This document shows, piece by piece, positions 12,035 to 36,561 of a stretch of DNA of 64,000 bases. The notes below the pieces were generated by a model that worked only from the letters and a program-made list of their open reading frames with translations, had not been told where the DNA came from and ran no database searches. Positions within the stretch are counted from its first letter, which is position 1. Each line of letters begins with the position of its first letter. The stretch is from Amoebophrya sp. A120 (taxonomy: Eukaryota > Protista > Dinoflagellata): assembly GCA_905178155.1 (NCBI GenBank), contig CAJINV010000014.1:2203923-2267922 (forward strand). Reading direction: 5' to 3'. Both the position numbers and the translations under genes were made by a program.

Positions 12035-15000
12035 TCACATCAGCCAGCAAAATATGGGCGTAAGAAAAAAGAACCAAAAGTACCGTAATCGTTTCGCATG
12101 CCTTTCCACTTTTTTCTCCGCGTCCTCTTCGAGTCCCACCATCTCCGCGTGAAACACGCTGATTTCAGGCAACAACCCAAATCGCATCCCACTGCGCCAC
12201 TTCAGGACCGCTTTTTTCAGCATTCGCTTCGCCAACGGGACACGATTGTACGAAGAAGCCGGCCGATTGAAAAGCAGTTCTCCATGTAGTGCTTCCTGGT
12301 GGGGTCGTCCACTCCGCGTGTTCATCCGCGACCAGTTTTCTTGAAGGCTTTGCTTCTCCGAGCGACTGGGCCGCAGCAACGCGAGTTTTCCTGCTTCCGG
12401 AGGAGAGCTGCAGGCTAGCAACGGTGAGAACCCCCCTTCTGCGATCGAAGACGCAGCGGAGGAGGAGGAGGATAACATCAGCGGCGTCGAAACACCTCCC
12501 TGTTCGATGAACAGCATGTGCGCTAATTTCCAACTGAGGAATCCTTTTCTCAGCAAGACAAACAAACTCCGCATCCTCGCCACGTGGTTCAGCGTTTTCC
12601 ACCGGAGCAAGCTCGCAACCTTCTCCGTCCTCACCACCCACCGCCACGCGGACAGGGAAAGCGCCTCCACGCCGATGGTACCCCGCCTCCAGCGAAAGAA
12701 GGCCCTCCTTTGCTGGTCTTTGACGCGGTCGGTTTCGGTGAGGGGAGGGGACGACGGAAGGAAAGGGCGCGGGCCGAAAGTTTTGTTTCCTTTAGATGCT
12801 GGCTGTAGTTCATCTTCTTGCGAGGTGTTCTTACTTTTGGACGACTTCGACCTTCGACGCTGCTTTCGCTCGCCTGATGTTTTCCTTTTCTTCCTCCGTA
12901 TCTCGTCGATTTTCTTTTTCGCGGTTTTGGTGGTCTGAAAGGGATTGTACTGGGACAAGATGGTCTCTATTTTGACCGCATTGTCCTCACCGTCGTTGTA
13001 GTCTTGGGGATGAGCAGTGCCACTTTCGAGAAGACGCTCATCGGCTCGACCTGGCGCGGCGCTCGACTTACTCCCTGCTTCTTTGTGACCCACCAAGGGG
13101 GAGAACGCAAGGTCTTCATCAGACTCTGGTCCGCTGGGGATACAACTACTTGAGCCGTCCGAGTCGAATGAAGACGATGTCAATTGTGGGGACGAGGTGC
13201 GAGAGTTTTCGTCATTGTCGACTTCCGCTTTGGTAGTTTCGCCAATCTGGACAAGAACGACATTTCTTTCACTCGTGGTTTTTCTCCCCCTCCTCTCTAC
13301 AGCATTCTCCCTCAACCCCGTCACCGCCAACATTGCCAATTTCCGCACGCGGAACCCCCAGGCCAATTCCGTGTGCATCTTCTGCTTCAAAAGATTCAGC
13401 AGACAAGTCATCTTCTTCGCACTTTCCCGTTGCACCACTCTCCCCGATTTCCAGCTCTCCAAACCGTGTTTCCGGAAATGTCTGTTGACAAAACGGACGA
13501 CGGCAGTGCAAAAAGGTCGCCACTTCGCGCGATACTGCCTTCCGCTGGTTGCAATCGCGGCTTGTTCTTCGGCACGGTCGAGGTGGAGCAGCCAAGAACT
13601 GATTTTGGTCGAGGAGTCCAGCACCCCGAAAGCTGTTTGCAGTCCGAAAGCGGTGCTCGTCAAATCGTGGTCGCCGGCGGTCTTGAGCAGGGCGGTTTGC
13701 GCGTCTTCATGCTCGTAATGCGCCTCGTTTATCACTCTGTGGCTGTGCCGTTCGCTGGTGGCATCAAAAGGACGCAATGCGGTGCTTTCTGCAACATTTG
13801 TGTGTTCAAGATCGTCTACTTCGTTTTCATCCTCGCAGAGTTGCTCCTTTCGCGATACGTAAAACCGCCAGCGGTGGAGGATTCTCGGTGCGCGGTTCAA
13901 AAGGAAAAACCTGTTTGCAACTCGTGTGTACTTTCCAACCAAAGCACTGTCCTGCCACCAGTGGCTGTTGTTTTTCAGGTGTTCTTCAAATTTGGATGTA
14001 CGACGGTGGTCCGCTTTAGCGTTTTTCAGAATGTTGCTGCTCTTGGAAAGCCTATTCGCTACGCGTCCTGGAGGTGGGGGTGGTGTTGCGCTACAAGCGG
14101 TTCGGGTGAGAAAGTCCTCTCGATGATTTGGCATGCATTCGAACATGCTAGTACTCGCAGGCTCCGCGTAGAAGAGCTGCTGAGGCGGTTGGTGAACAAC
14201 CGGGTGTCGTGTTTCATCCGCACCTCCTTCTGCGGCGACGAAGTTCATCTGGGCGCGACCTCTTGTTGTATTTTTGCTCCTGAGAATGTCCGGTGTCGCA
14301 GACAAAGAGGAGGGGTTTGATGTCATGTTGCCGCTACTGATTCTGTCGCCAGCGTTCATCCTGCTGAATGGACCAACGTATGGAGAGTTATCATCTTGCT
14401 CCTGTCGTAGAAAGTGAAAATTCTCGTCGCCAGTTCTGTTCAAGAAATCGTTCACAACATCCAGGTCTTCCCTCTCCTTCGCCCGCAGCTGCAGCTTTGC
14501 CCGGGAAACTTGGAGGGAGGAAGTCCCGCCCACTGAAAAGGTAAGATTTCTCTCACTGGTAAGAGCTGAAGACGGTGTCATATTACTCGCTTCCGTTCTT
14601 TTACTCGGCGTCGATTCGACACTGGACAGCATTCCCTGCTTTGGCTGAGGACCGAGATAGAGTGGCTGCTGCTGTTCCTGTCGAGAGAATGTAGTTTGGC
14701 GTTGGTCTACTTGCTTGTTGTTTCGCGCATGTATTGCCAGCCTCTTCTGCCTGGTAACCGTCTGTCCATCTTTTGCGTAGAAGTTCCCCATCGAGCTACC
14801 TTCTGCAGGAGCTCCGGCAAAATTCATCCGTTCTGTACCTCCTTGCCGGTACTTGAGCAGTTCTTCCAGCACGGCAATAGCTTCAGGCTCAACATCTGTG
14901 ACAACGTCGTGATCAACAGCATCTTGTTTCGTAGTAGTTCCTTGATGATGGAGGTCATGCGGCAGGACCCGCTGATGATCTTCCTGGGTACGCTCATACG

Positions 15001-15691
15001 CGGTATACCCTCCACTTTTTGTAGGCTCCATGCGATAATGAAAACGTCGTCCAGCTGCAACATGTTGATGCCCAGCAAGCGCCAACTGTCCCTCGGTGCG
15101 CCGCGCGATCTTCCCCGCACTGCGCTTGGCGAAATACGCGGACTGTTGCGCAAGAGAGACATGCTGTTCGTGTGTTTGATCGACATCCTGATGATAATCC
15201 AGCTTGTTCCAGTCATGATCGTCCACCTCGTGATCCACTCGCTCTCCGTCCTCGTCACTGGCGTTGTCCGCGAGAAATTTCTGCAATTTGCTCGAAAAAT
15301 AACTGGTCCTGTATGCGCTCCTCGTGGGGTCGTTCAGCTCCCTCCGTTTCTGCAAGGAATGGTCGATGAGCAGGTCTTCTTCCCAGCACGTGGACAGCAG
15401 CTTGTCTCGGGAGTGCTTCAGCTGAAACGAAGGTCCGGCTCCTCTTGCTGCGAAAGTTGCACTAGATGGTGGAGTTGCGATTGCAGATAGCACAACCTGT
15501 TGCTGTTGGTCGTGATATTTTTCTCGCAAGAGGAGCGCCTCCTCGCGGGCGAATAGTTGACTATCAGTTCTTGCTTCACGACCTCCCCGACGCGGTTCTT
15601 GCGAGGTGGACGGAGCCAGACCATGCGCGATTTTTCCGGGTGGAAACTGCTCGGCCCCGGCTGCGGAGGAAGAGGAATAGGACGATCGCAT
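12035..15691 (-). CDS. Hypothetical 1218-aa protein; large transposon inserted 26 bp upstream of the ATG
   Basis: Long ORF with basic W-containing helical segments near the C-terminus; probable GT donor near 12083. Confidence 0.7.
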   Translation of the reverse strand: MRSSYSSSSAAGAEQFPPGKIAHGLAPSTSQEPRRGGREARTDSQLFAREEALLLREKYHDQQQQVVLSAIATPPSSATFAARGAGPSFQLKHSRDKLLSTCWEEDLLIDHSLQKRRELNDPTRSAYRTSYFSSKLQKFLADNASDEDGERVDHEVDDHDWNKLDYHQDVDQTHEQHVSLAQQSAYFAKRSAGKIARRTEGQLALAGHQHVAAGRRFHYRMEPTKSGGYTAYERTQEDHQRVLPHDLHHQGTTTKQDAVDHDVVTDVEPEAIAVLEELLKYRQGGTERMNFAGAPAEGSSMGNFYAKDGQTVTRQKRLAIHARNNKQVDQRQTTFSRQEQQQPLYLGPQPKQGMLSSVESTPSKRTEASNMTPSSALTSERNLTFSVGGTSSLQVSRAKLQLRAKEREDLDVVNDFLNRTGDENFHFLRQEQDDNSPYVGPFSRMNAGDRISSGNMTSNPSSLSATPDILRSKNTTRGRAQMNFVAAEGGADETRHPVVHQPPQQLFYAEPASTSMFECMPNHREDFLTRTACSATPPPPPGRVANRLSKSSNILKNAKADHRRTSKFEEHLKNNSHWWQDSALVGKYTRVANRFFLLNRAPRILHRWRFYVSRKEQLCEDENEVDDLEHTNVAESTALRPFDATSERHSHRVINEAHYEHEDAQTALLKTAGDHDLTSTAFGLQTAFGVLDSSTKISSWLLHLDRAEEQAAIATSGRQYRAKWRPFCTAVVRFVNRHFRKHGLESWKSGRVVQRESAKKMTCLLNLLKQKMHTELAWGFRVRKLAMLAVTGLRENAVERRGRKTTSERNVVLVQIGETTKAEVDNDENSRTSSPQLTSSSFDSDGSSSCIPSGPESDEDLAFSPLVGHKEAGSKSSAAPGRADERLLESGTAHPQDYNDGEDNAVKIETILSQYNPFQTTKTAKKKIDEIRRKKRKTSGERKQRRRSKSSKSKNTSQEDELQPASKGNKTFGPRPFLPSSPPLTETDRVKDQQRRAFFRWRRGTIGVEALSLSAWRWVVRTEKVASLLRWKTLNHVARMRSLFVLLRKGFLSWKLAHMLFIEQGGVSTPLMLSSSSSAASSIAEGGFSPLLACSSPPEAGKLALLRPSRSEKQSLQENWSRMNTRSGRPHQEALHGELLFNRPASSYNRVPLAKRMLKKAVLKWRSGMRFGLLPEISVFHAEMVGLEEDAEKKVERHAKRLRYFWFFFLTPIFCWLM

Positions 15692-15717
15692 GGTTGGTGA
15701 CAGAGGACTTTCAATGA

Positions 15718-15982
15718 TATCGAAGGAAAAAACTGTTTCACTGTGGCGATACTAAAAAATCACTGATTTTTTTTTGGTGTGAACTTGCAGAATTTTTTTA
15801 AAGTGAGTTTGCATGTTGCTCGTGAAGTGTCTATGTCGAAACTACATATGACGACTCTAGCTATCGGTTGCTTCAGCTATAGGTTAGTTAATCTAGTTAG
15901 GAAGGCAGAACGTAAGCTAATTAAGTGCTATCCGGAGCGTCGGCTGAGGTAAGGGTGCTAGGCCGCATTCTGGCCCCACCTC
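15718..15982 (+). repeat. Left terminal inverted repeat (~265 bp, imperfect)
   Basis: Blocks mirrored at the right end: first 29 bp, aaaaatcactgattttttttgg, ctagctatcggttgcttcag (15857-15876), ctagttaggaaggcagaacgtaa, ttctggccccacctc. Confidence 0.92.
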
Positions 15983-16649
15983 ACAACAAAAAAACTCAAA
16001 TTTTTGCTAAGTACCCCATCCAGGTTCGAAATACAAGGCTCATCCGGGAAGCTCTAGAAAATCTGGGTTGATCAGGCATGCCAGGGCCAAATCCAGCCTG
16101 CTGGGCGATCGGAGTGCTGTGATCGAGATCTGTCATGCAAATGGTGGCAATTGGCTCAGAATGTCCCGCTCATGTCAGTCAAAATATCGATCGAGAATGA
16201 AACAGGTCCAGACCGCGCATCACAAATCGCACCATCCCTCCGCATGATCGGAATCGTGATCCTCGAAGCTCCTGCGTGTGGATCATGTGCATCAGCAGCG
16301 CCGCAAAAATGAAAACAACAACAACTCCATCTTCATACGAGCCAGGGCTTCTATCATTTGCTTCGCGCAAGTGATCTCAACTACTTCTTCCGTGACCCCT
16401 GGACTCGGATACAACTACTTCTAGAACATCTTCTTCGCTAGACGCGCAGAAACCTCCTCCGTAGAGCCACTTGCTGCACCGACTTTCCGTCGGCAATCTT
16501 ATCCGAAAAACAACCACGCAGCCGAGGGATAATCGATAAGCGCATGAAAGTAGTGGTCTCGTTTGATTTGATATACGAGTATCCGGCGGCTGAGTGGTTG
16601 TTTTTCGCAAGGATATTTGCGTCTTCTGCTGGTCCCTCACTCAAGCAAG

Positions 16650-19079
16650 ATGTCGCGCGCCAACATCGTCCACAACGCCAAGATGACTGGAGATTATTCC
16701 AGTTTGAATGCCGGCGAGAAGCGGAAGGAGTCCTCGAGACTCTGGAAGGCAAAGAAGTCGCTGGGCCTGCAGTACGACACGCCGAAGGATCTCCGCGAGA
16801 TGATTGCCGACTGCCAGGAGGCGCTGGATGAGCTGGAAAAGCGGCCGGAGGAAAAATTGGGCGGGCAGATCTTCTCGGGCGAAAAATACAAGAAGTATAC
16901 TTATCTCCGTTGGTTTTTTTTAGTAACGTAGACCGTCGCTTCAGCATGACAAATTCGGTTTTTTTTGTTTTTCTTGATCTACTACATGATGCGAAGACGC
17001 ATGTTGGGGCGGTCGGTGCAGGTCATTTGTCTTTAGAAATAGCAACACAGACTCGCGTCGGTCCCTACTATCAGCGTTGCCGGCCCCCCTTACGAAATAG
17101 CATGAGAGATTTCGCAATCTTGTATCAGACAGCATCACAAATTTCCATTGTCCAACCCAAAATCCCTCAGTGGCTGGGATGACATCGAGCTGAACTTTCA
17201 CACGAAATGGGTGGCGCTTTTGTTTGGTGAAGACCAACAGAACGTCCAACGGGCCATCCGCCACCCGTCGCAGGCGGTGGGCTTGTACAGAACCATGGGA
17301 ATTACCGATACGCACGCATAAGCATCTATACCCGTCTTCATATTTGTGAGTTTGTCATGCACGAGAGTGGTTGAAGTTTCGGCTTTTTAGAATGCGCGAT
17401 GTGCTTTTGTTCAAATCTCCATGTTCCTGAGAGTTTAAATTTTCCCCGCAACAACTAAAACAGCCCCCCAAGGGGAACGAAAAGGCGCCGAATGAACGCA
17501 CGGCGGTGGCCGAATTGATGTGGTGGCGGGCGAATGCGAAGCGGAAGTTCAAAAAGGCGGTGGCCGAATTCAAGAAGATGATGAAGAACACGGGCAAAAC
17601 GTTGGACACTTCCACGTCCGAAGCCGACGACTCCGACAAGACCAACGACCAGACCACGGACGACGAGGAGGAGCGCACCTACAAGCGTGGTCGCGAGACA
17701 AAGCGCTCTCTGCCGATCAAGGACACCAAGCGGAGCAAGCGTTCGGTATAAATAAATCTGTTATGCGTATTTCTTCCCGGTGTTAGCACATAGATCGAAT
17801 CTGTCATGTGTATCGCGAATCGAATGACTCACAAGAGCCAATCTTTCCCCAGCCCGCATGAGAAGCTTCTCAATTTTCCAAATCGCACACACAGGTGTTG
17901 GCCATCAAGGACCGTGCCCGCCGCTCCCGCGCCGAGTCGAGCTCCGAGGACAAGAAGCGCCGCGCCCGTGGCAGCCGCCGTGACACCAAGCGCCAGAAGA
18001 AGACGGGCGTTCTCTCGGAGTCCGATTCTCCGCCCCCCCGCAAAAAGCGCTCCCACAGCAACCACCGCGTGCAGAAATCCACTTCCTCGGCTGCCCGTGC
18101 GGCGAAGCAGATCCTCGCGTTGCCGGACAAACGTCGCGATTCCAAGGAAGAGAAGCTGAACAAGGAGAAGTCCCGCGCTGCCAAGCAGCCGCTGGGCAAG
18201 GGGAAGGAGAAAAAGTCTTCGGATCTGCGCCTGGAAGCGTCCTCGGACTTCGAGGAGCAGGATGCGGACTCCTTGGACGCTTTCTTTCGTAGCGACGAGG
18301 AGGAGGAAAACGACTCCGATGAGAAGCCGTCGAAATCCGACGAGGAGTTTGTGGATGATGAAGAGGCTTATGGAAATGATGAGCAGTCCTCCAACATGCC
18401 CTTTTCGGCGTTGCACCGTCAGAACATGCGGAAGCTGGGCAACAAGACCACGGTGGCTGCGGGGAAAAAGGCGGGAAAGGGAAATGTTGGCGGCGGCAAG
18501 AAGGAAAAATTGTTGCCCTCGGATTCCGAAGACAAGCTGGTGCCGCCGCGCCTGCGGAACGTCGAGGCCCCGGGCACGGGTGATCGTCCGATGAAGGCGT
18601 CGCGCCTCCCGCACCGGAACGCTCTGGAATGTTTGAACTTTTTGGAAAACCGTCAGAAGATGTCCTCCCCGGGTGAGACGCAGAAGTCAACCGACTTCGA
18701 ATCTCAGCAGACGTCTTCTGGTGGCACCCCGCAGCGCGCGTCGAAAAAGGGCATCAGCTCTGCCGAGAAGAGCTACTCTACGCCCGAATCGATGAAAAAG
18801 AAACGGAAGTCCGCTGCTGCGGGCGCGGGCAGCGTCATGAAGAAGTTAAAAGCCACCCCGTCCCAGAAATCCCCCGCTGCGTCGCAGAAGGAGGAGGTGA
18901 AGAAGCCGGCTGGTACTCCGGGTGGTGGGTCGAAGAGTGGAAAGTCGAAATCCACTCCGAACTCCGACAAAAAAACCCCGACCACCCCGCAGTCGGCGAA
19001 GAAGGAAGCTGCGAAAGCGAAGACGCCGGGCCAGGAACCGAAATCCGCGATGAAGTCGGATGCCGGGTCGAAGAAGTAG
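16650..19079 (+). CDS. Transposon gene A: multi-exon protein with a Lys/Ser/Arg-rich basic C-terminal region, function unknown
   Basis: GC-rich exons at about 16650-16894, 17171-17273, 17464-17745 and 17895-19079, separated by short AT-richer segments ending in AG; TAG at 19077-19079. Confidence 0.7.
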
Positions 19080-20598
19080 TTGAAATTTTTGAGGAGTTGC
19101 TGCTGATCTCGAGCACTTCGAGACCAGCCCTCTGGCAATACAAATGACAACTTAGATAGAAAATCGAAACTGATGTTTTTTTTCTAGGTAGTCGCCTAGC
19201 AAGAAGCGTTGACTGATACATCCAAAAGCGAATGCGTCAACTTTTAGACTCCTAGAAGCCGAATACCCCTGCAGCCACGGTTTTTCGCTCGCTGTTTTTT
19301 AAAACGACCGATCTCAACGCCGTATCTGCAGCATGGGCTGGCCACCTATTGCTGTAGACACGACGCGGAGTAGGTTTCATGCGAGCTTTTTATAAATATA
19401 CAGCACGCGATAGTACTACAAATATATTTCTACCTCGATATAGATGCTTTTCCTCTGCTGACGAGCAGAGTGTTTTATCCTCCTACTGCGCGCCACAGAC
19501 CACGATGATTGATTTTTTTTGTGTCTCGACACCAACATGAACCCCGCTTGAAATAACGAACCTGTGCGGCAGCTGCTCGAAGCCTAGTAATTGGGCAGAC
19601 TTGGCGCGGTTGCTCTTACTTGTCCCCTTTTCTTCCAGATAAACCGTTCCGCGATGTCTGCAGCAGATAAATCGAAATCCCGGGTCTAAATAAGTAGTTC
19701 CTCTAGCTCTTGGCTCGAAGTAGTTCCGCACTGCAGTCGAAGTCTTACAATGGAAATCTTGGCCCGAATTAGATCCGCACTACAAATGACGAAACTTCAT
19801 AGAATCCGCATTACAGATTACAAGTGGTCCTCTGGTTCTCATGGTTCGAAAACCTTCGGCAAAATCCAAAAAGCACAACCATTGAGATGCATATCGCTAA
19901 GCCATGACATTTCCAGCGGATTAGAAATTGCGGACTATCTTAAGTCTTATCGCATTTTACAACTTTACTCACTTCTTCATCTTTCTGTTCTGTGGTAGAC
20001 CACTACTCAAATCATTTTTGCCGTCGCGTTCTACTTCTTGACCTCGCGCACGCCACTACGAAATCGAGATGGTCGAGAAATCGAAGAAACACGTGCAGAG
20101 CGGGGTGCTGTCCCTGGTCCGGATGATGCCGGAAAAACAGCGCTGCAACTGGTACCGGAAGAAGTGCAGCCGTATGAATTGGAAAAGTTGGAAGGGGTTC
20201 TATTTTTGAAGCGTTTTGCATGATTTACGCATGACAAATCGACCGCGCACTCCTGGGCTTCACAAATGGAACTACTTCCAGTCTTTCCAATTTCATACTT
20301 CTGCGTGCTGCTTGGGAGACTTGGCGTTATGATAAGGCCATGGAGCACCCCCTCCCGGCGGGCTTGGATATGGAAAAAGGGGAATGCGTCGGAAGTTTCG
20401 GGTCTGAGATGGTATAAGCATTTTGATAGTTGTTTGTGATGCGTATTCCGGTCGTTTTCGTAGTTTGTTATGCAAAAAGCAAACTTCGTAGTAGTCTATC
20501 TGTCCTCTTCCATTTCTGTTTTCTCCTTGTGTCTCATGCATGTGGCTCCCCGGGCTGGAACTTCCTCACTCAATTCCAACAAAAATAAAAAGGCTCTC

Positions 20599-23500
20599 AT
20601 GCTGGACTGGATGGCCACGCGCGGGTACGCTGATACCGTGAAGGAGTACATCCAATCGGTCCGGATGCAGGAGTCGTGCCTCACCGACGAGGACCAGCGG
20701 CTGCTCCTTGCTGCGGCGCTGGAGAAGCACTACTGCGACGACGAGGCGACGAAGCACCACCAGCTGGTAACTTTTCTTCTGTTTCTTCTCGACCTTCTTC
20801 TGCATCAAAAGCAAATCTGTCATGCAGTTCTCCACTAGTCGACAGCAAAAAGCCCTCCCATCATGATTGCCAGAGTCTGTCATGCAATTTTTCACAATTC
20901 CAAACCAGATGAACGTGTTGCGGTCGTGCATGGCGGGAATCATCTTCGTCTGGAACTGCCTCGGGGTTTGTGCGCTGGATTACCCGCCCGAGTTCCAGTA
21001 CCTGTCGGACTACACGTGGCAGCGTACTCTGTGTCTGGCCCAGGACACGTCGACCAAAGGGTTGGAGACAAAAAACGGAATTCAGGTATATGGAAATTTG
21101 TCATGCATTTTTCGCGCGATAGTCATTTGCTGGCGTTTTAGCAACTTGCCACTTTGTTTCTCACCGATCGCTTTCAATGCGTGTGTCAAACCTCAAACAG
21201 GTCTACATGCTGTTCGCCCACAAGACCGCCGCGTCGTACCTCACGCACATGTGGGCGATGCCGTTGCAGCGGCCCAGTGGGGCACTCGGGGGCGGAAAAA
21301 ACAGGCAGCGGGCGGCCGCGCAAGCAAAGGCGTCGGACACGTTTGGTGTGTTGCACTGGCTGGGTGGTGCAAAGCTGATCGAGAAGCTGAAGGGCCCCTT
21401 CAAGACGGGATGGCGCACCACCTGCGTCTTGTCGGGGGATCAAGAGGAGACGCAAGTCCGCTCTTCGTACGGTTTGGCGATGGTCTTAAACTGCATCCCA
21501 ACTTTGGGAGTTCATCATCGTATTTCGAACATTTGTAACAAGCTGTATCCGCAGCTGTCGAAAGTGAGGGAAGCCCTCAGAATCTTTCTGGGCGGCCAGT
21601 GGTCGAGGCAGTCGCTTCGGGGCGCTTTTGAAGACGCCCGGGTCCGCCTTTTGGACTCGGCAGAAAACGACGGCTGGTTCAGCCAGGCCATCGAGACTCA
21701 GACCGGGAAGTCGACCGCGGAAGCCCTACGCGAAAGTAAGACTTACACCCTTTTTCACGATCTACGTTCTTGATTTGTCATGCTGAAGCTGGGGGGGAGG
21801 GCACAGCGAGGAACTGGCCACAAAGTGGCAAAGCAAGACGGGAATACTCTGCAAATCCCCCTCTGGGGGTGGTCGGGACAGGCAGCGCCAGGCCTGCGCT
21901 TCATTTTTCTCGCGCCACGGCTACGAGAACTACTCGCCCAGCAATTCTCTGTTTTCTTACCTCGCCCTGGCCAAACACCTTCAGCTGTAGGACTGAAGGT
22001 GTAAGAGCCACGCGCCACTTTCGGAGGGGTCAGAACTACCTCCGAAAAGTAATGACACAGTAGACAATTTCTGCCCCACACTAACTGCGTGAAACAGCTT
22101 CCGCGATTTGCAGTTAGGTGGGGATTAGAAACACGAGCATTACTGTTTCACCCTCGAGATGTAACGCGCCCGAACCCCTCAGCGAAGAGCATCACTCTAG
22201 TGAGATTCTTTGTTTCTCATCTGTTACACATGTGACGCCACACTTGCAATTTTCGATGATGAACATGCAGCAGTCTTGTTTTCGCAAATGATTATCTCGT
22301 ATCCGAAAAATGCATTACAGACGCATCATTGCTGTCGATGGTCGAAACTCGGTGGTTCGCGGAGATCAAAATTTGCTTGCTCCTGTTGGAAAATTCCGAA
22401 GTCATCCTGGCCATCCTGCGTGAGATGCTTACCAACAGCAGCCGCGTCCGGCTGTCGGTTGGGCCGGGCGAGGATCCGGGGGATGGCACGGCGGAGGACG
22501 GTACGTTGATCGATTTTTGGGATTTGGCGCCGCGTCCGCTCGTATCCACCGCGAAAACATCCAGCTGTAAATCTGTAATATGTCAGTCCTGCATGACAAA
22601 CTCACCACCTATGCCACTTTCCGCATTACAGATTTACTTCCTGGACCGTTTTCCGTTTCATAGTCTGAAATCACTCCGGACGGCGTCGTGCTCGGATTTG
22701 ATACGGATGTCAACGGGAACAGCTATGACGCGATCACCAACGCGGTTCTGGCGGACGATATGCGCCACATCATGCCCGGAGTGTTCGAGAGGCCGGAGGA
22801 ACTGGAGCCGGGCCGGGCACCGCCAGTCCTCGCCCCGATTATGGAGAACCGCCTCCTGCCGATGGACAACGTCGAGGTGGAAGCTTTCAATGCTCGCAAC
22901 CCGCCGGCTGATGGTGAAGCAGAACTGCTGTTCGGGAATTTGTCGCCCATCGCTGCCGATAAGGGGAAAGCCGATGACGAAGACCCCGAGTTATGAAAAT
23001 GCAAAAACTCATCTTCGCCGCAGGTGCTGATGGCGTGACGTGTCGCAGTTTGTCATGCGGAAATAGAGATAGATCACGCAGCATGGGCTATGAGGGTGAG
23101 TTTTTTTTGCGGTTGCATAGTCTCCGGCTCCTGCTGCCCCGCGCGCAGATCCCGGTGGGCAGCTGACGGACAGAAACAAGGTCGTGCAGCTGTACAACGC
23201 GATCAAGTACTGCGACATGGACCGGCTCAACCACTACAAGAACATGAGCGACCGTCTTTACAAGTACCACCTCTGCCACTTGGAGGTGACCGGCGGGGCG
23301 CTTCTGGACGACGAGAAGCGTCTGGAACTGATCAACAAGTATCAGGACCTGTCTCCGGGCCTGATGTTCGAGGCCGGGCACCACGAGTTCCTGCAGAGCG
23401 CGGAGAAGTGTTTTCCGGACATTCTGCTCCGGGCGATCACCGACTGCACGCGCCAAATCCACAACTCTGCCGAAATGCAGTCGGTGTTCATCTTCTTGAT

Positions 23501-25641
23501 CTTCGCCTTCAGATTTTGGCTGTGCACCGTCTTCGATCCGGCCTACAACTTGTGGCACACGCTGGGCCACCGCATCGGCGAAGCGAGCAGCTGGATCACC
23601 AACAGAGTGATCCGGTTCGACATTCTGGACGCCGAAAACTCCGAGGGGTTGTTTCTTCGCCCGAAAACTGTTTTTGCGGAGTGGATCCAGCGGCTTTTCA
23701 TCCACGACGAGGAGCTTGCGCGGGATGTGTTGGATAATATCCCGATAGCTGGGTCCACGTCGGACTTTGAACAGGAGAACCACTGGCGGTTCGTCACGAC
23801 CGCACAACGTATATTCAGGAAGTTGGCGGGTCGCTTCTCGTTGTCGGCCGCCCGCGTCCGCTGGGCGGGGAAGTTTCGGCTTTACAAGGCCTTTCCGAGC
23901 CTTTGGGGAAACTCGGCCCGACAATCGCCGGTTGCGATTTCGCAGCTGAAGCCGCACCTTCTGGATCCGGCCAATCCGCCCACGACCGCCAGTGTCAAAA
24001 ACCGCGTGATCGAGCTTGCGCGCGAGAACGTGTTCTCGCCGCTGAACATTTTCCGCAGTGTGGAAGATCTTCGCAGCTCGCACCAGCTCCCGTTCGACAT
24101 GAAGAAGATCCTCGACTCGGTGAGGCAGTGGTGCTTGTCGGACAAGATCGCGGCTCACAGCTCCAACTATTTTCTCCCCGGCCTGGAGATCGCGGCGTTT
24201 CTGGAAGCCAGCAAGACGGATGACCTCCGCATTATTCCGATCTTGCGGGAGCTCGGGGAGCGGATCGACAACTTCTTCAGGTTCCGGCACTGGGCTGCGA
24301 GCAAAAAACCGCTGGTGGCGATCAACGAGGAGAGTCACGCGTTTCAGGTGGTGCTGATTCTGCAGGTCATCTTATCAGCTGGGGAAAACGGCCAAGCTTG
24401 TTGAATTTGTCATGCAAAGCAGCATGTTGGGGTGGTCGGGACAGCTCCATTTGCAGCTCCGTTTTTGCATGATAAACCCGAGGAGCGCAAGTTTGTCATG
24501 CGGGAGCATGATCAGAATGTCATGCATTTTTAGAATCTTTGGCGAATTATGCATGACAAGTTCATCAAGCTTGGCGCATTTTCATCCGGATATCGCCGCG
24601 GGCTGTACTACGGGGTGACTTTGGAGAAGAAGGAGCTCGGGGTCTACATGCTGAACCCGGCCAGTTTTCTCCCTGTGTTCGGCCTGACCGCCAACCTCGC
24701 CGTTCTGGTGCTATGCACTCAAAAACTGTCCTGTCCCGACCACCCCAGCATGCGGAGAGTGAAAGAGTATCCCTCCCTATGTGGCTCGTGCAAACAAGCA
24801 GCATGCTGGGGTGGTTGGGGCAGGAAAGTTTTTCAGTGCATAGCGCCACTACCACATCTCGTTCGACAACGGGCGCTTCTTGGTGAATTTCCTGAACTCG
24901 GATTACGTTCTTTTTCGCGACGCTGTGCTGCAGGGCCTGGACCACATTCCGAGCCGCATGTTGAAGGATGTGGTGAACATCTATTCCGGGGTGAACATCA
25001 TTTCGGATCCGCCGGCCTCCGAATTGCGGAAAGTACTGCGGGTCATGGCGGGCGACGCGGTTCCGATCGAACAAGCGAAGGAGACGATGCAGCATTTGAT
25101 CCGCTCCGAGATCATCGATCTTGGGGCCATCGATGATGCCCCGAATGCCCGGCGCCGCCGCGGAAACGACGGGAACGCTGCCGGCCGCCCCGAAGGAGCT
25201 GGTGGTGGCGAGGGGGAGGCTGACGGTCCGCGCGGCCGGCAGGAATTGGGGCGCGTGATGAACAAGACCCAGTGGGCCTTGGTGTGCTCGCACTGCAACA
25301 CCGACGTGGTGAATGTCCGCCGCTCCATCAAGCGGACGGGCGGCGGGGGTGCCATGCTCCGCGCTGTGTGGCCCGCCGGCACCTCCTGGGAGGGCGAGCG
25401 GAAGCCGCAAATGAGCACCTTCATCGGGGCCCGGAACGACGAGCAGGAAATTGTGGAGAAGGTTTTCAAGGGTCCGGCGACCGAAAAGCACAAGCAGATG
25501 TGCCCGGAATGCGACGAGTTGCTCCTGATGCAGCGGGACATGCGCTGCAAGGCCGCGGAGGTGCTGGAGATGAATGAAGAAATTTCGATTCCGGGTGGCG
25601 GCAATCTCCTCGATAATCAAAATGATGATATGGTGTTGTAG
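20599..25641 (+). CDS. Divergent hAT-like DDE transposase (~1200 aa or more) with a C-terminal CxxC...CxxC extension
   Basis: Exons at about 20599-20766, 20909-21085, 21201-21735, [21736-22320 unresolved], 22321-22541, 22664-22990, 23121-24347, 24534-24707 and 24844-25641. Motifs in hAT order: LCLAQDTSTKG (D1), VLSGDQ (D2), VHHRISNI (CxxH-like), VETRWFAEIKICLLLLE (TRW), ARENVFS (ERxFS-like). C-terminal CSHC...CPEC. True start may be further upstream. Confidence 0.72.
22543..22662. mobile_element. Introner inside the transposase gene
   Basis: Left end tatccaccgcgaaaacatccag..gtaaatctgtaat, right end reverse complement tatgaaacggaaaacggtccag..gtaaatctgtaat. Removal joins LAPRP(L) to SEITPDG and avoids an in-frame TAG; readable as GT-AG. 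Confidence 0.8.
22992..23119. mobile_element. Introner inside the transposase gene
   Basis: Left end tatgaaaatgcaaaaactcatc, right end reverse complement tatgcaaccgcaaaaaaaaactcacc. Removal joins DDEDP(E) to SPAPAAPRAD in frame with ORF 23184. Direct repeat degenerate. Confidence 0.78.
24712..24842. mobile_element. Introner inside the transposase gene
   Basis: ~40-bp IR: tatgcactcaaaaactgtcctgtcccgaccaccccagcatgc / gcatgctggggtggttggggcaggaaagtttttcagtgcata. GT-AG intron 24708-24843 joins NLAVL to RHYHISFDNGRF in frame. Confidence 0.85.
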
Positions 25642-26420
25642 ATAAGACGTGTCCGTTTAGAAGTTCGCGCAGGAGCTTAGGAAAATTCGCACACCAAAAC
25701 ACGCACCGCTCCTTCTGCAATTTTAGAAATACAAGTTAGCACAGCCGCAAGCAACAGATATTCTTTTTGTTCGTTTGGAAATAGCAATTTGCAATGCCAA
25801 ATGTAGTCCTTTTATCCTTGAGCTCGAGTCGTCAGCAGTAGATTTTATCAGATTCCGACCTGTTTTTGCACAGTTTTAGCGCGCAAATTTACAACCTAGA
25901 CATCTCCGCTGTGCCATCGTTTTGTCTTTTATTCCGGAGCTCGGTCTCATACTAATTACATTCTCGGAAGCTTTTTCTTCTGCCTAGGCTCTACCACGCT
26001 ACTATGAAAGGGACACAAAAGTACAGGGATATAAATAAAGGCTTTCAAATACAAAAGGAATAAAGTGCTGCGCTGAACTACCTGAAGATGAGAATTGGAA
26101 GACTAGAGCCTCCTGCTGCGCGCCCCTAGTCCTTGAAGCTTGCGCCATTTTCACTGGCAGCTGGCAGGGGTGGCAGCGGGACCAGCGCACTACTGTCCAA
26201 ACAGCAGCACACGCCCCGGAATCTTTACAATCGAAAGCAGAAAGAGCATATCCAAAAAGATCACAACGTAAGGAAATCGCACACAGTAAAATCAAAAAAC
26301 TCCGCTCCTCCACCGAGATAGTTCATAAAAGTCCTCTGGTTCACGCTTGAAATCTTCGCATCAGCCAAATTTGCAATGCTGCTCGCACTGATCAGGAGGC
26401 TCCTCACCAATCAACTAACC

Positions 26421-27861
26421 CTACGGCGCCGCCGCTCCGAGGCTGTTTGTCTGTTGGACATTCAGAAGCATGTTGCGTAGCGAGGCCGGGTCCGCGATCT
26501 CCTCCGCAGTCAAATAAAAATCATCCGTCCAGTCCCAACCTCCGCTCTGTTTTACATAGTCCAGCTGGGACGGATACAGTGTGATCGTTCGAGTCCATGG
26601 CATCCTGCAGTTTTTGAAGTCTTATCCTTGCGTCAGATGTTTTGGTTTCTTTCGCCTTCGAATCTGTCATGCGCAAAAACAACTTATCACAGGCCAAGAA
26701 TCGAGAGAGAGGTAGACTAGAATCTCGACGTAGCTCGTAGTGCTTGCTGCTGTGCGTAGTTCGTATCGCTTGCACCGTGCTAGTGCCTGTGCTGAGATTA
26801 AGTACTCCTATCGAAACAATGGCCATATTACCCCGGCGCCTCCGGGTCTGGCGCATATCCGTTGGCCGCCAGGCCCTGGATCGGCAAGAAGTACGTGCCC
26901 GCAAGGGTTCTTTCGGGGCCCGTTTCTTCGCGGCAGTGCAGGAGGAGAACTTCGAGGTCTTGCAGGAGAAACCCGTCGCCGTTTTTGCTGGTATAAAATC
27001 TTGATTTGTGTTGCTTGAGAGAGAGATAAGAGCGTAAGGATAGGGATTTTCTCACTCTTTCCGTCATATGCTATACAAGTTTGCCTCCTCCTTGCACATA
27101 GTGTTGAAAACAGGGCCGCACTATTTGCCCCTACTAGGCGAGAAAAAGTGCCGGGTGGTGCTTGCCCGAACTCCTTGCACGTCCCCCATCGTGCTTCGCT
27201 TGAGCTTGAGAGTCCGCTCCTGGCAGCGGAGCACGAACTCCTGGTGCCTCAAGGTGCCATCGACCACAGAGAGCCCGCGCCTGCTAAGCGAATACGCGCC
27301 CCCTGCGGTGCTCACGCAGTCTGTAAGCTGCTGCCGCATCCGCTGTTCAACAGCCTGGTTGCGTGAGGACGCGTTTCGGTGCCCCATCGCGCCGCGTTTT
27401 TCAATGGCGAAATCGCCCCAGTACTGCTCGAGGCGCGGCCGAATGGCATCCCGGCTGCGCCACCACCTGTCGTGGCGCAGGTCAATTGCGGCCCAATCGT
27501 AGTACCGGTACACCGGTACTACGAGCAGCATGTCCTCCACTTCGGAGCTAATGCCCACGACGATGCTGCCGCCATAGGCTTCTCGCTTCTTTTTGATTTG
27601 GCACTTCAGATTTCTACACCACTGGTCCCAGTTACTCCAGGACCCCTTGGCCTGAATGAGCATGACGGTCGCGGACTGGTTTCCGCCCGCTGCCGCCGGC
27701 CCGCCGACGGCAGCCTCATTGTTGGCCGGGGGTTGGGGCGTCCTGGCGATAGTCAGATCAGCCAAATACTCCGGCGTTTCCACGATGTCGAAGAGGGGGC
27801 TGAGGATCTCGTAGATCTGCGCCACGGACCACTCTTCCACGTCCCGCGGCTGTGTCCCCAT
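26421..27861 (-). CDS. Transposon gene C: unknown protein, probably multi-exon, convergent with the transposase
   Basis: GC-rich ORF 27121-27861 plus probable downstream exons at ~26830-26990 and 26421-26610; splice junctions not resolved. Confidence 0.55.
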
Positions 27862-28243
27862 GGCTGCGGAGGCAAATAGCAGGGCCCGAAGGGGCTGCCG
27901 CCGGCAGCAGGCTCGTTACAGGCAGGGCCCAGGCAGCTGGCTGGGCGATAATAGGTGGGCTGGAGCAGCTGCTTTGAGGCTGCTCTGGCCCTGTAGCTAG
28001 GGGGGCTAATTCTCAAGGGGGATTTGCGGGCTCGGGGGACCTGTTTTTGGCCTATTTGCAGGGCTTTTGCCTATATATCCTCTATTTTCATGCGTGATTG
28101 ACGGCATAGTGCTCTATTATGGCTCAATTTGCCTATCCTCCACCACAGATACGTCGATACTGGCCCAGCTTGGCGACCGACCAGCTCCTCCACGACTCCA
28201 ACCGACTTGATCCTCATCTCTTAACAGATTCCGCCCGTGTTAC

Positions 28244-28508
28244 GAGGTGGGGCCAGAAGCGCGGTAAGCGAAGATGCAACACGTGGAACGCTGCTGCCGC
28301 CACTTTAGCTTTACGTTCTGCCTTCCTAACTAGTTAATGTAACTGAAGCAACCGATAGCTAGTTTCATATCTAACAATTTGCAATGCAAAGAAAAAGGTC
28401 CACCAGATGCAGCGGCTCCGGGCAAGTCGAAAAATATTCAACTTTAACCCAAAAAAAAATCAGTGATTTTTCGAGATGACCACAGTGAAACAGTTTTTTC
28501 CTTCGATA
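28244..28508 (-). repeat. Right terminal inverted repeat (~265 bp, imperfect)
   Basis: Reverse complement of the blocks in 15718-15982; the innermost block sits the same distance from the end on both sides. Confidence 0.92.
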
Positions 28509-31500
28509 AATGATGCCATTCGATTATTACCTCCTCTTGGCGACATCAGTTTTTGGTTTTGAATCAAAGAAATGCACGCAAAAATATTTCTGTGTGAGTT
28601 TTGAAATGCTGCTGACGTCGGCCACATATTGCAACGCAGTGCTCATTTTTGCACTAAAACTACACACACTCACCCTCATAAAGTACACGCCCTCGTCGAC
28701 GCACCACTGAGTTTATCTTGCTCCCTCCACTGACAGCGTCCTCAACCACGTACCTACTTCTAGTATTTCTTTAATCGGACATAGGTACGTCTATTCTCAA
28801 GTAAGTACCAACATGTTTGCAAGTTGAGTCTTCCTCTCTGGAACTACCGCTAGCGCGGCCACACCAAGGACGAGGACCATATCAAAACATCACGATGGTC
28901 ATCTAGACCACCTCCAGAGTGAAAAGTTATAATCGGCGCACAAACAAAGCAGGACCTGCACCACCAGCATAAGCCGCTCATTGCTTTTATTTTCCTCTCT
29001 GCGCTGGTGTTCTTCGCAGCGTCTGCTCCCGAGAAGCGAATGAGAAAGTGAAGAAGACGGGGCTGCTGGCATGATGTGCAGCAGCATGCACCTGCTTCTT
29101 GACGCGTTTGTCATGACTTTCTCTCGAAGAGATTGAGATTTTTAGTTCTTGCCAAGCTTCTTCAGGCTGGCGAGTCTAGTTACAGACCACAACCTACCTC
29201 CCGGAAATAACGCACAGCGGAAGAAGCAGAGGCATAAAATTCAGTTTGCTGATGTAGCACATCTATCATGACGATGGTCATGTAGTATCGCCGTCCCATT
29301 TGTTGCGGTCGGGGTCGCGTTCTCGTACCACATGCACATGATCTAAAAGAAAAACTTCAACAACTCGGTAGAGCATACAACGATCGGCGTCGAAGGTGGG
29401 TAGCAAAGTAGCCCTCACTTTCACAACAACTTCTACATGAAGACTAGGAAGACGCATCATATATTTTATTTTTCAAACGTTTTCACAAGCGCTGGAATAC
29501 GCACGGCACCCCAGACTCGTCTAGCGTTCTTTTGTTTAATATCTGAAAAAAGTCAGGAGAATCAGTAGAATAGATGCTATCACACACAGTCTGACATTGA
29601 CAACGCCCCCTTGTGCCCGTCTTTGTCGCCCAGAAAATTGATTAATGGATTTTTGCGCAAATCCAAGTCATTGTACCACGTCAAAGTAGTAAAAACAAAA
29701 ACTGCTGCTCCTGCGTGTGCGCGACTTGCATCGCTATTGGTGTAACTACACGAAGCAGAATAGGAAGACAAAACAAGATGGACGATGCATCTTCAACTTG
29801 TAAAACCCGTTTTGTAGAAGGTAGTCGCGCCATCGCTTGCCCAAAAGAAGCTGCTCTAGGGTGAAACTCAAGCCCAGGATGTCCTTGCCTTTTCTGTTGT
29901 CCGAGTGTTCAACCTATACGGCCAAATGAGAATTCGATTTGACATGAACACAAAACTACTACAAAAACAAATACTGTTTGTGTAATTTTTTGAAATTTCA
30001 GAAATGTCGTTGTTTCGTCGCTTACGTTTCCTTGCATGATGAAGCAGCGAGGTGGGCCACAAGTACAACAAGCAGCAGCTGCGAGTTGGAGTTGCTCAAG
30101 TTCAACGTTGCCCCTGATGGTGTTGCGGTTTGTTACTCCTGATCTTTAGGTGGAAAATGGTCAGCACAGCCGCAAGAAGGGATTTTTATTCTCCAAACCG
30201 CGGGTAAGTACGTATGATCAAACGAAACTGTGCCTGCCTCTGTACGAGCAAGAGCTTCTTTCTTTTCTCGATTCGGGCGGCTGTAATTTTATTTGTGTGT
30301 GTGTGTGTGTGTGTGTGGAAAATTGATGCTCTACTACACAGCTGCGCTACATTAACCGAAAAGACGCTTTCTAAAAGAAGCAGCCACTGCTATGTTGACT
30401 ACGAGGTCTTTGTGGTCGTGCAGCTTCTTTTTCACAATTGCAGCTCAAGAAGAATGCAGATCCGATATACGGATGCTGGTGTTGGAAGTAGTCAAATCAT
30501 TTGTGGTCGTGGTGCCGTGCGGCTCATCAATTATTTCGCGACTTCTAGGAGCATGCCGCTCAGTAGTGCAGTTCATCCCCGACCCCGTGGCATGCACACA
30601 GGTTGGCTCCCTCCAACCTCGTGGCAAACCGCCCATCATGTATTTTAAAAATACATGATGGACTGCATGAGCTTTGATGTTTCTATTAAAGATACGGAAA
30701 ATTAGAAACTTGCTCTTGTTGCCGCGCTGTCACGTCTAGATAAGTATCGAGAGAAACTGCTTGCGTGCCCGTACTTATTGTCATTTTCTTGATTAATGGT
30801 CTTCCAAAAAAAAGGAACGACGGTCTCCTTACAGATACAGTCCATCGGTTCTTTTTCTGATTTTGTTACTTAATCATAATCACCCCGGCAGCTGCGTGAG
30901 CCTGGTTCTGTCGTTTCGTTGGCCGACGAGTTCTGGCGCCTTCAAATATGAGGCAGAAGGGTAATAAACTAAAGCAAATGTGGAAAAGGAAAACGTAAAA
31001 TATCACAATGACAACTTTGATGAGATATTCGATCGATCACGATCGTCTCGCTATTTTACAAGAAAGAGGTACAACATAAACATGATGTGTCGTGAAGATG
31101 AGATGGATGAAGCAGTAAATAGCTTTTTTATGTCCCCTCGTCACTACGCTTCGATATTCATTTTAAACGAAGTTCTTGGTCACCCCATAGAAATATTAAG
31201 TGGTATCATCTATCATTCATCGTCGTATGAAACAAGAGTCAGTTGGTTCGGCGCCGGCACAGCAAGTTGTTCGAGTTGAGCTCCAGCGGAGTAATTTGAT
31301 GCTGTTGTTGGCGTGTTCCTCAGCGCGTCGACTGCAGGAAGAGGAAACATCGAACAAGAAGTATGCTACGACTGATAGTTCCCGGCTTGCGCTGGTGTGA
31401 TCCCGATGATCTTGGAGGTGGTGGTTGCGCCCGGAACTCGGTACGTCTGGTGGTGTTGTATTTTTCATATGAGTTGCAATTTGAATTTCTTCTTTTTTGC

Positions 31501-32074: not shown

Positions 32075-32273
32075 ATCTTCGGGATCGTAAGTCGCCGAGC
32101 TCGTGCCGCTCGTCGGACTTTTGATTGACTGCTTGTTCCTCTTGTTAGACGTGCTTTGTTGCTGTTATGCACCAGTACAAAATTTTTACAGTACACACAC
32201 AAAAACAAGCATCACAAATTTTCGCATATGGCGCCTTTTTAACGAAACATGGGAATTGAAGATGATATCGCTG

Positions 32274-34090
32274 TCATGTTCTTAAACTACAGCTACGCGG
32301 TCGACCGCGTAATTGATCTTGGCGGGGTAACGAAATGGTCGAAGCGGAAATAGCCGAACCCAAGCCGACATTTGAGATGTCCAAAAGATGAAGAACATTT
32401 GATTGTGTGCGTGCGAAAAATTTTTTAGCAATGGATAGCTGTCCTGTTGATGTCGGCGAGCTGCCTCCGGTACCGACGTTCGCGAAGTTGTTGCTGTTGC
32501 TCAAATTGCTGAGGACCTCGGAGGAAGAGGATTGCAACGGCAGCAGATTCTCCTCGCCAGAGACCACCGCGTTGGTTGGGGAGGGTCGCTGATGTATTGT
32601 TCTGCCGTCGTGCTGGTGCAGCTCTACCTTCGCACGACCACGTCCTTCGTCAACAGTGTCGTCTTCTGTTATCTCCATGCTGTTGCTATCTGCGAGCTCT
32701 ACTTGCTCTTGACCTGCTCTACTCTGTCCTGCTCCTGGCGATCTCTCTATTACTTCACCAGCTCGCCCGCCGTCTAGATTCCCGAACCCGTCCGGGCTGT
32801 TGGCGGGGTAGTTTCCGTTTTCGTCGACATTTTCGGGGTAGTAGGCGTCCAGGTTCGGAAAGTACTGGAAGAGAAAGTTAAACGAACTGTTCCGCGTATA
32901 CTCCTTCCCCCAGATCAGCCCGCTGCTGTAGGTCCGCAAAATCCGGTCCCCCGCCGGGTTTTCCTTCACGACGGGGATGAGCTTGTCCAGGATTTTCTGC
33001 CCCAGTTTCGCGACGAGACGGAAGGGAAGCTTCGTCGTGGTGTTGTTGCTGTCGTCCTCCGTGGTGTGGTGGCTGCTGTCGTGGGTGTCCGACCGGTCGC
33101 CGATACTGGATTCGGACCGAACACTGCTCATCGGCACGTGCTCCGTCTCCTTGGTCTGGGAGGGGGTTTGTTTTCGTAGTCTTTGCGTCACAACATCCGC
33201 TACGCACTCGTACTACACTGCGTTGTACGCGAAAATGACTTCTAAAAGCACGACCTGCATAAATATCGATGAGAAAACTGAAACTACACTAACACTATAC
33301 CTGCATCAGCCTGAGTTGGTGCCCCACGAGGTTTATCCTGTGCAAAAGTATCGTACTCGACTCGTATAATTGCAATCATGCAAAAATTCTTTTTTTTTAG
33401 GTAAATCCGCATTACAAATTTTATCTCTCATGCTGAGGAAATTTGTCATGCATTCATACGAGTACGATACTTGTGCAGTTCATAAGGTTCGTGTAGTGTG
33501 GACTGATCCCCTTCTTCCGGCATACCGTGCTGCAATAGGAACTGTCGTTGCGCTATGGAAGCCTCAGGTTTGAAGTCGACAAATAAGTTGAAAATGAAAT
33601 AATTTGTCATGCATAAAATGCAAGGCATGAAGTGCCTGTCTTGCCGGGATGGCAAGTGAGGTCGATTGTGAGCCTGTTTAGGGTTTGAAGTAGAGCTGCT
33701 AAAGCAGCATGACAAAAGCAGTCTTCTGTGCCTAAACAGCATGACAAACTGGATTCCGGTGCTCGGAAGATTTGTCATGCGCCACTTGATAAGTGGGCTT
33801 CCGACTGGCATGGGCAAGGGCATCCATTTCATGCATGGCAAACTATTTCAACTTTGACGATTTCGATCCTGACACATCCATATGCGCATGTAGATGGCGG
33901 CGGCTTCCGGGATCAGTTTCACGCAGTGGTTACACCGGAACAAGAAATCTACTTGCTGGTGTGGTCCTCCGGCGTTATTGGCATTCGTCGCGCCCAGACC
34001 CGTAGTAGCACCGGTGTCCGTCGCCGTGGTCGACGTCATCGTGGCTGTGGTCATGTTGCTGGCGGGGGCAACAGAGAAGTTGTGCAGCAT
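32274..34090 (-). CDS. FCS-like zinc finger (FLZ/DUF581) domain protein
   Basis: Removing two introners gives FLFRCNHCVKLIPEAAAIYMRNDSSYCSTVCRKKGISPHYTNLVGHQLRLMQ (CX2CX17-YCSX2C). A GT-AG intron starting at 33300 then leads in phase into YECVADVVTQRLRK (ORF 32274-33191). Confidence 0.8.
33334..33484 (+). mobile_element. Introner family 1 (151 bp), antisense to host gene relative to sister copies
   Basis: tatcctgtgcaaaagtatcgtactcg ... cgagtacgatacttgtgcagttcata; perfect DR AGGTT; homologous to 40118-40254 and 47847-47999. Confidence 0.92.
33554..33882 (+). mobile_element. Introner family 2 (329 bp)
   Basis: tatggaagcctcag ... ctgacacatccata; perfect DR TGCGC; splits the FLZ finger; homologous in inverted orientation to 39738-40044. 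Confidence 0.92.
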
Positions 34091-34789
34091 CAAGATCTTG
34101 GTACTAAATGTTGAGCCCTCGTGGTGGACCACGTGCACGTTACTTAAGCAGTTGAAAATGAAGATGCTCTTCACAGCCGCGTGCCTCCGAGTTCGCTTCT
34201 ATTGATTTTTTTTCTCCTGCTCCCCGAGAATGATCCCCAAGAAGCGCTGCAGCAGATGCAAGAAGCTCAGCTTGTGGAAAAAAAGGCTGCTGGAGATGAA
34301 TGGACTCTACTGAAGACCGGTGGTGCAGCGTGTATTTCTTTTCAGCCAAGAACCACTGCTGACGATGAAGCCGTCGTGCTGTCGAGGAAAACGCAGAAGA
34401 AGAACAGCAGGGGACGGCGGAGGTATAACGTGTTGAGTAGATTGAGCGTCTGCAGCAACTGTGCTGAGGATGTCAATGGCTCCTGCTGTACTCAAAAAAA
34501 GTACATAGTTGTTCACACACACACTCCTGCTCCTCTCCGATTTACAACTTTGAAAACACCTAAAGTTGAATTGGAGAGTGAAATATAAATACTTCACAAG
34601 AGGAATAATCCTCGTCAAAGTTGTTCGACTTCGAAGAGGCACATAGGAAGGTCTTGGGCATGGGCGTTTCCACGCAGTACAAATAAACAAGGTAATACTA
34701 ATAATTGAGGAACTTCTTGTGTTCCATATAAATCTCTACCATGACTAGATATAAGTCAGAAAACCCATTATTTAATAGTATCCCGCAAT

Positions 34790-34981: not shown

Positions 34982-35013
34982 ACATGCAGACAAAGTGCCC
35001 AAGCTTCTAAGCG

Positions 35014-36560: not shown

Positions 36561-36561
36561 G

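Follow-up and report, generated by a model that had tools for sequence, protein, structure and literature searches.

A large TAT...ATA transposon of Amoebophrya sp. A120 and its predicted hAT-like transposase as a candidate source of introners

The window analyzed here, 64,000 bp of contig CAJINV010000014.1 from the dinoflagellate Amoebophrya sp. A120 (assembly GCA_905178155.1, positions 2,203,923 to 2,267,922), contains a 12,791-bp element (the large element) bounded by terminal inverted repeats (TIRs) that open with TAT and close with ATA. The large element is a real, intact-looking and undescribed large TIR transposon, and one of its three genes (gene B) very probably encodes a transposase of the aspartate-aspartate-glutamate (DDE) type, of presumed fold. 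On balance, the family of this cut-and-paste element, which appears to extend across Amoebophrya and is predicted to encode a divergent hAT-like DDE transposase, seems to be what mobilizes the short TAT...ATA introners (repeated introns) in trans. The copy in the window most likely serves elements that carry its own TIR, and a paralogue is the more likely mover of the two families of short elements found beside it (families 1 and 2).

The large element and its ends

The large element spans 15718-28508, with TATCGAAGG at its left start and CCTTCGATA at its right end (Table 1). The original prediction had drawn a hAT-like element at this site with a perfect 29-bp TIR and a perfect 5-bp target-site duplication (TSD), and both are present, the TSD being AATGA. 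The ~265-bp imperfect TIR that it also described is found out to ~271 bp only in patches; the continuous alignment covers ~203 bp (161 identical positions in 222 columns), with an extra 21-bp patch at ~251-271 bp. The large element thus shows what characterizes class II TIR transposons, namely TIRs, a TSD and the same ends at other loci. A metagenome scan with the 18-nt start of the TIR returned 47 loci, none of which matched at more than 10 of 22 further bases, and these were judged to be due to chance.

Depth and end counts were taken from a single DNA sample (run X1), which is possibly the assembly's own sample and in which depth is not a copy number. Depth over the interior of the large element (41.7-43.6) is that of the flanks (44), and the large element is therefore single-copy. 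The totals for the two end bins are 485 and 529, ~11x the flank depth. About 80 contigs fit both ends (81 of 115 records match two places, and 79 records are 90-95% alike), and, among the rows listed, loose contig ends lie 28-33 nt inward of the termini. The depth of the end bins, the two-place records and the loose ends therefore point to many other elements that share the outer TIR but not the interior. At depth 50, a contig of 82 nt connects 15977 with 28245 (the intervening letters are marked as not known), which implies a separate deletion derivative of ~524 bp. Another contig carries a variant end that differs at TIR positions 4-8 and is followed by a TATCGAAGG end at a distance of exactly 5 nt, which fits a TSD of 5 bp and an N7 stretch that varies. 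An inner part of the right end (28224-28257) is matched by RNA-like contigs that come from other loci, so that related ends occur in other transcripts.

The large element is inserted 21 nt upstream of a host gene's start codon and has introner-type ends, which raises the idea that all 12.8 kb of it form a giant introner spliced from the 5' leader of that gene. This is very improbable. Runs X3 and X4 are from one sample and their RNA status was guessed by a tool, but their contigs lack the GT-AG intron 11851-12083. Spliced contigs of these runs pass from the host exons through the left TIR and reach 16484 and 16464 (depth 63-66). None of their joints bridges the large element, and the far flank has hardly any coverage (contigs drop rare forms). 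The large element is retained in the adjacent host mRNA and not spliced from it. It likely supplies the upstream part of the host transcript, the start of which cannot be fixed from contigs.

Gene B as a predicted transposase

The gene B model joins 10 exons over five GT-AG introns and four TAT...ATA inserts. A query of its largest exon (23121-24401) matches 7 of 1.84 billion representative proteins, all of them unnamed Amoebophrya proteins, with four from strain A25 (on scaffolds of four different lengths) and three from strain AT5.2. These homologues appear to form a dispersed, divergent, multicopy family in the two other strains. The spliced model aligns with the seven homologues over residues 3-1277 at 21-33% identity (E 6e-61 to 6e-7), and this full-length alignment therefore gives independent support to the exon structure. 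Word-index protein searches found no match for exon 5 and, among shorter proteins, none for the catalytic region; a search with the homologue alignment returned only P0001 and a 114-aa fragment. At position 20994 in exon 4 the window reads T and the DNA run reads A.

The catalytic triad order of Hermes and other hAT transposases, together with the hAT consensus, provides the frame for reading this alignment. Invariant residues of the gene B family (D, D, HH, RW and E; Table 1) fall in hAT order. There are nine invariant D/E columns in total across the alignment, and the choice of D176, D269 and E780 therefore rests on motif context: hydrophobic strand-like runs precede both D176 and D269, and E780 stands in an invariant S775-D776-x3-E780-x2-W783 motif with a basic patch 12-20 residues after it. 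A candidate first aspartate in an LDW motif at residues 76-78 was rejected because it is not conserved, whereas D176 is. In Hermes the order is two catalytic aspartates, H268 (of the CxxH motif), W319, the glutamate and K585/R586/R588 (for H268, W319 and the basic residues, PMC4763223, PMC5225508). By its place in the order, R378-W379 is predicted to be the equivalent of Hermes W319.

The large element resembles hAT transposons (Hermes, Ac and the Buster/ZBED5-DUF4371 type) in its TA...TA ends and long subterminal TIR, and gene B resembles their transposases in its D, D, H, RW, E order, its long predicted helical insertion and the basic patch after the glutamate. It differs from them in several respects. 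The TSD is 5 bp, whereas that of hAT elements is 8 bp (PMC4763223). After the second aspartate, the gene B family keeps the histidine of CxxH but has glycine for cysteine in all five covering sequences (GxHH). An N-terminal BED zinc finger is common, though not universal, in hAT transposases; gene B has none, no cysteine or histidine being invariant before residue 294, and instead bears a C-terminal C-x2-C/H-x3-C motif (C1165, C1168, H1233 and C1237 are invariant). Additionally, gene B contains four non-canonical introns, the large element has two extra genes, and Pfam finds no match to PF05699 or DUF4371 in the gene B exon or the seven homologues. Because of the 5-bp TSD, the missing cysteine, the missing BED finger and the absence of a PF05699 match, gene B is not filed as a member of hAT. 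A 5-bp TSD in a hAT-type element has been described for hAT5 (Kapitonov and Jurka 2007, cited by PMC12730594), which lies in the animal Blackjack lineage (PMC12730594); hAT5 is likened to the large element by the published description of its TSD.

Several other results weigh against the identification of gene B as a transposase, along with the altered CxxH motif. Pfam gives no transposase family for the 18 single open reading frames (ORFs) of the window or for the seven homologues, and a sequence search of the PDB found no related sequence (one chance match). AlphaFold models are unreliable, with a predicted local distance difference test (pLDDT) score of 45.9 for P0001 (10 rows) and 43.6 for exon 5 (5 rows). 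With the low-pLDDT model of P0001, Foldseek returned no match at E <= 0.001 and VIA-align gave a best Z of 6.7 to generic helical bundles, a result that does not speak against an RNase H fold. P0003, which is without the N-terminal part, yielded no usable match in the Atlas of ESM features. Runs X3 and X4 show no junction that confirms gene B or any short element of the window, and the genes of the large element are represented there only by short contigs at depth 2-4. In favor of the identification, nine of the ten best Atlas neighbors of P0001 with an assigned family belong to the hAT clan and carry PF05699; their scores (0.76-0.79) are below the acceptance bar of 0.9 and are a lead only.

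These results leave room for the view that gene B is a passenger or domesticated gene and that the large element is non-autonomous, a TIR element that some other enzyme moves. It would account for the lack of Pfam, PDB-sequence or fold support, for a protein of 1,282 aa that is about twice the usual length of a hAT transposase with its cysteine/histidine motif at the other end, and for the two unexplained genes and single-copy interior. This view is improbable, since the acidic residues, HH and RW remain invariant in hAT order, after hydrophobic runs, despite the low identity of the family; the hAT-clan neighbors of P0001 (again as a lead) and the dispersed, multicopy state of the family in two other strains also speak against it. 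Gene B is thus best described as a predicted DDE transposase. The transposase-like gene of the original prediction survives as a 10-exon model with hAT-ordered residues and not as any single ORF matching a transposase family, and the label hAT-like holds for residue order, with the Atlas neighbors as a lead, but not for TSD length, the CxxH cysteine, the BED finger or Pfam.

Short elements and the link to introners

The ends of A120 introners consist of TAT, seven variable bases and then at least three A (Farhat 2021, PMC7789003). The TIR of the large element fits this TAT-N7-AAA consensus; the original prediction had given the introners of A120 as TAT-initiated. Amoebophrya introners have hairpin ends and insert into exons, and the legend of Fig. 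S19 gives an example with a 5-bp repeat (Farhat 2021, PMC7789003). The large element has in common with them its TAT-N7-AAA ends and a short direct repeat. Unlike the introners, which are short, non-coding and spliced, it is long, coding and not spliced from the host transcript.

Perfect direct repeats of 5 bp flank six short TAT...ATA elements of the window (Table 1). Five had been claimed, and three of the five termini quoted come from elements with imperfect repeats (1969-2293, 47476-47706 and 24712-24842), the last of which lies inside gene B. The scan that gives six admitted weak inverted repeats when the direct repeat was perfect. Among the six non-nested elements outside the large element that pass on inverted-repeat score alone, four have a perfect 5-bp repeat, and a stricter scan found one in 2 of 22 real hits vs 0 in each of 20 shuffles. 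AAA occupies positions 11-13 at 12 of 28 short-element ends vs 49 of 1002 background TAT sites. Thus the pattern of TAT, N7 and an A run is enriched and not, as had been proposed, shared by most elements, and family 2 (TATGG) is without it. The 28 ends match the large TIR at 6.2 of 17 positions vs 4.3 for background TAT sites (p ~1e-5; the ends are not independent). Members of family 1 (33334, 40118 and 47847) are 75-82% alike and those of family 2 (33554 and 39738) are 71% alike.

The evidence also includes points at odds with a link between the large element and the introners. BLAST of families 1 and 2 against the large element found no similarity beyond the end pattern, and the four inserts in gene B retain no TSD (direct repeat 0-2 of 5). 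Strain A25 has gene B homologues, yet its introners start with TTA (Farhat 2021). The 10-mer TYTGYVATGC (core TGTCATGC) occurs at 43 sites from 1972 to 54190 vs 2.4 expected, an 18-fold enrichment in both orientations. Of these sites, 22 are in the large element and 20 of the other 21 are in short TAT...ATA elements; within the span of gene B, all 12 are in introns and none in exons. Only one site lies within 300 bp of the ends of the large element. TYTGYVATGC may therefore be a splicing signal and not a transposase binding site, and it is regarded as a candidate splicing or protein-binding signal. The organism has been reported to be without U1 small nuclear RNA.

Published classifications bear on the link as well. 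In Gozashti 2025 (PMC12130899), a superfamily is given for 2 of 58 A120 families (Ginger and Mutator), neither being hAT, and 56 are without one; introner fam135 has a hAT5/hAT6 termini match in a table but a final class of non-LTR (long terminal repeat)/unknown. The literature covered, to which Repbase, subscription papers, figures and bioRxiv supplements did not belong, reports no hAT-like transposase for Amoebophrya introners. A120 family 38 is Ginger-like, with a length of ~810 bp, a 5-bp TSD and TA/TA termini (Gozashti 2025, PMC12130899). The large element is like it in ends and TSD, but family 38 has LTR-integrase-like homology and gene B shows none. IS3EU elements have a 6-bp TSD and TAYGG..CCRTA ends (PMC12730594), and the ends of family 2 (TATGG...CCATA) are of this type.

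[quoted passage not shown] The resemblance of the window families to the large element in end pattern only, and the intronic location of TYTGYVATGC, suit this explanation, as do family 38 and the ends of family 2. It is nevertheless rather unlikely. The TSD of the large element has the length found in the six short elements, and family 2 matches IS3EU in its TATGG ends but has a TSD of 5 bp vs 6 bp; the large element itself departs from IS3EU in both its TSD and its TATCG end. The differences between the TIR and the variant end described above are confined to positions 4-8, which belong to the variable N7. Furthermore, the adjacent mRNA retains the large element, so that selection for splicing does not explain why the ends of the latter fit the consensus.

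Mobilization by the transposon family remains the favored explanation. The gene B family is a better candidate than the copy in the window, given that families 1 and 2 resemble this copy in end pattern only, that TYTGYVATGC is scarce near its ends and that A25 introners start with TTA. The original prediction that the family of this element supplies the introner transposase is partly borne out in that its ends fit the consensus, recur without the interior and accompany a hAT-ordered protein, while the short families of the window share with it the end pattern only. Its caveat that a relative, and not this copy, may move families 1 and 2 stands.

The remaining features are listed in Table 1. 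Genes A, B and C have a G+C content at third codon positions (GC3) of 0.75-0.78 vs 0.58 for the host gene, and Pfam gives no family for gene A or gene C. The GT-AG intron 22575-22663 of gene B holds a TAT...ATA pair set back by exactly 4 nt from its 5' end and by 1 nt from its 3' end, and is possibly an old introner turned canonical. An element with an 8-bp TSD at ~24404-24566 was rejected, as that sequence belongs to the insert at 24373-24592. Region 33334-40254 was also considered as one composite element and rejected, there being no common TSD and each short element having its own. Within it, 34780-36700 consists of three tandem arrays that abut one another, one built of palindromic units of ~54 bp, and family 1 and family 2 elements frame them in mirror order. 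A small minus-strand gene at 33485-33976 matches zf-FLZ weakly (E 0.017, not reaching the cut-off) and bears two short elements 69 bp apart. A 762-bp TAT...ATA element at 7513-8274 has GC-rich ends, no A run and a 3-bp direct repeat only; deleting it plus 3 nt gives the best minus-strand frame. Another MITE family is represented by a 640-bp element at 53828-54467, with 130-bp, 91% TIRs and different ends, which encloses a TAT...ATA pair at 54052-54253.

Table 1. Features of the large element and its surroundings (positions in the window)
Feature	Position	Strand	Remarks
Left TSD	15713..15717	.	AATGA
Left TIR	15718..15920	+	Perfect 15718-15746 (29 bp), imperfect to ~15920, further patch to ~15988; fits TAT-N7-AAA
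Right TIR	28305..28508	-	Patch from ~28238
Right TSD	28509..28513	.	AATGA
Gene B model, predicted transposase	20069..25641	+	10 exons, 1,282 aa, without internal stop, GC3 0.78
Gene B exons	20069-20170, 20298-20411, 20593-20766, 20909-21085, 21201-21735, 22321-22574, 22664-22990, 23121-24371, 24594-24710, 24844-25641	+	
D176, predicted first catalytic Asp	21044..21046	+	Invariant in 4/4 covering sequences
D269, predicted second catalytic Asp	21438..21440	+	Invariant in 4/4; present in P0008 too
G292-x-H294-H295-R296, at position of hAT CxxH motif	21507..21521	+	Present in all 5 sequences that cover it
R378-W379, predicted equivalent of Hermes W319	22350..22355	+	Invariant in 5/5
E780 in G-x-x-S-D-x-x-x-E-x-x-W, predicted catalytic Glu	23775..23777	+	Invariant in 8/8
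Introner-type TAT...ATA insert 1 in gene B	20173..20297	+	125 bp
Introner-type insert 2 in gene B	22992..23119	+	128 bp
Introner-type insert 3 in gene B	24373..24592	+	220 bp; one extra residue vs homologues at junction
Introner-type insert 4 in gene B	24712..24842	+	131 bp; one extra residue at junction; direct repeat 2/5
TAT...ATA hairpin insert upstream of gene A	16500..16615	+	116 bp; no TSD left
Gene A model	16650..19079	+	605 aa in 4 exons with three GT-AG introns; rich in Lys/Ser; GC3 0.78
Gene C	26811..27861	-	First exon 27861-27135 (~242 aa), then a GT-AG intron and a second exon whose frame is uncertain
Host gene (main ORF)	12035..15691	-	Start codon 21 nt from TSD
Upstream part of host transcript contig	15692..16484	-	Runs through left TIR into element; X3 and X4
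Short element	32166..32437	-	TSD GCTGT; in host coding frame
Short element, family 1	33334..33484	-	TSD AGGTT
Short element, family 2 (TATGG ends)	33554..33882	-	TSD TGCGC; interrupts weak zf-FLZ match
Short element, family 2	39738..40044	-	TSD CGGTC
Short element, family 1	40118..40254	-	TSD TCCCG
Short element, family 1	47847..47999	-	TSD GGTTT
Short element	1969..2293	-	Direct repeat 4/5; in lipase-3 gene
Short element	47476..47706	-	Direct repeat 3/5

Splicing arithmetic, mechanism and meaning

The proposed mechanism has four steps. The transposase, acting through D176, D269 and E780, would bind TAT-N7-A ends, excise the element and insert it with a 5-nt stagger. Exons would then receive short derivatives and members of related families. 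In RNA, the inverted ends would pair and cuts would fall one base outside each end (NT...AN), so that the element plus 2 nt is removed and 3 nt of the duplication are kept as one extra codon; the frame would survive an insertion in any phase. Finally, the transposase gene itself would need four such cuts, and its expression would thereby be linked to the splicing of introners.

NT...AN sites are expected from a cut one base outside T...A ends. In the largest A120 family (family 2 of Gozashti 2025, PMC12130899), 5' sites are NT in 6,681 of 9,716 introns and 3' sites are AN in 6,598 of 9,716, these totals being sums made in this analysis from rows of the published table. Such a cut leaves 3 nt of a 5-bp TSD and therefore one extra codon. 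In a frame test of five host genes, deleting the short element plus 5 nt (equivalent in frame to plus 2) gave the longest frame in two genes (615 vs at most 456 aa and 458 vs at most 312 aa), a tie in two and an uninformative result in one. At the insert junctions of gene B, an extra residue relative to the homologues is seen at two of four, and the remaining two are in poorly aligned regions.

A broader proposal, which we put forward tentatively as less than an even prospect, is that an undescribed lineage of large hAT-like transposons, Amoebophrya-wide and with three genes and 5-bp TSDs, generally drives the tens of thousands of non-canonical TAT...ATA introns, that its insertions are frame-neutral and that its transposase is made only by way of its own introner splicing.

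Amoebophrya A120 has 29,850 repeated introns, and the genome paper ruled out transposase-mediated mobilization because no transposase was found in A120 (Farhat 2021, PMC7789003). The large element offers a concrete candidate for such an enzyme, one that standard domain searches missed, and makes the creation of introns directly testable. Five minus two nucleotides, leaving one codon, would be a simple arithmetic reason why insertions of this kind are tolerated. Beyond the introns, the end of a transposon apparently contributes the 5' part of a host transcript.

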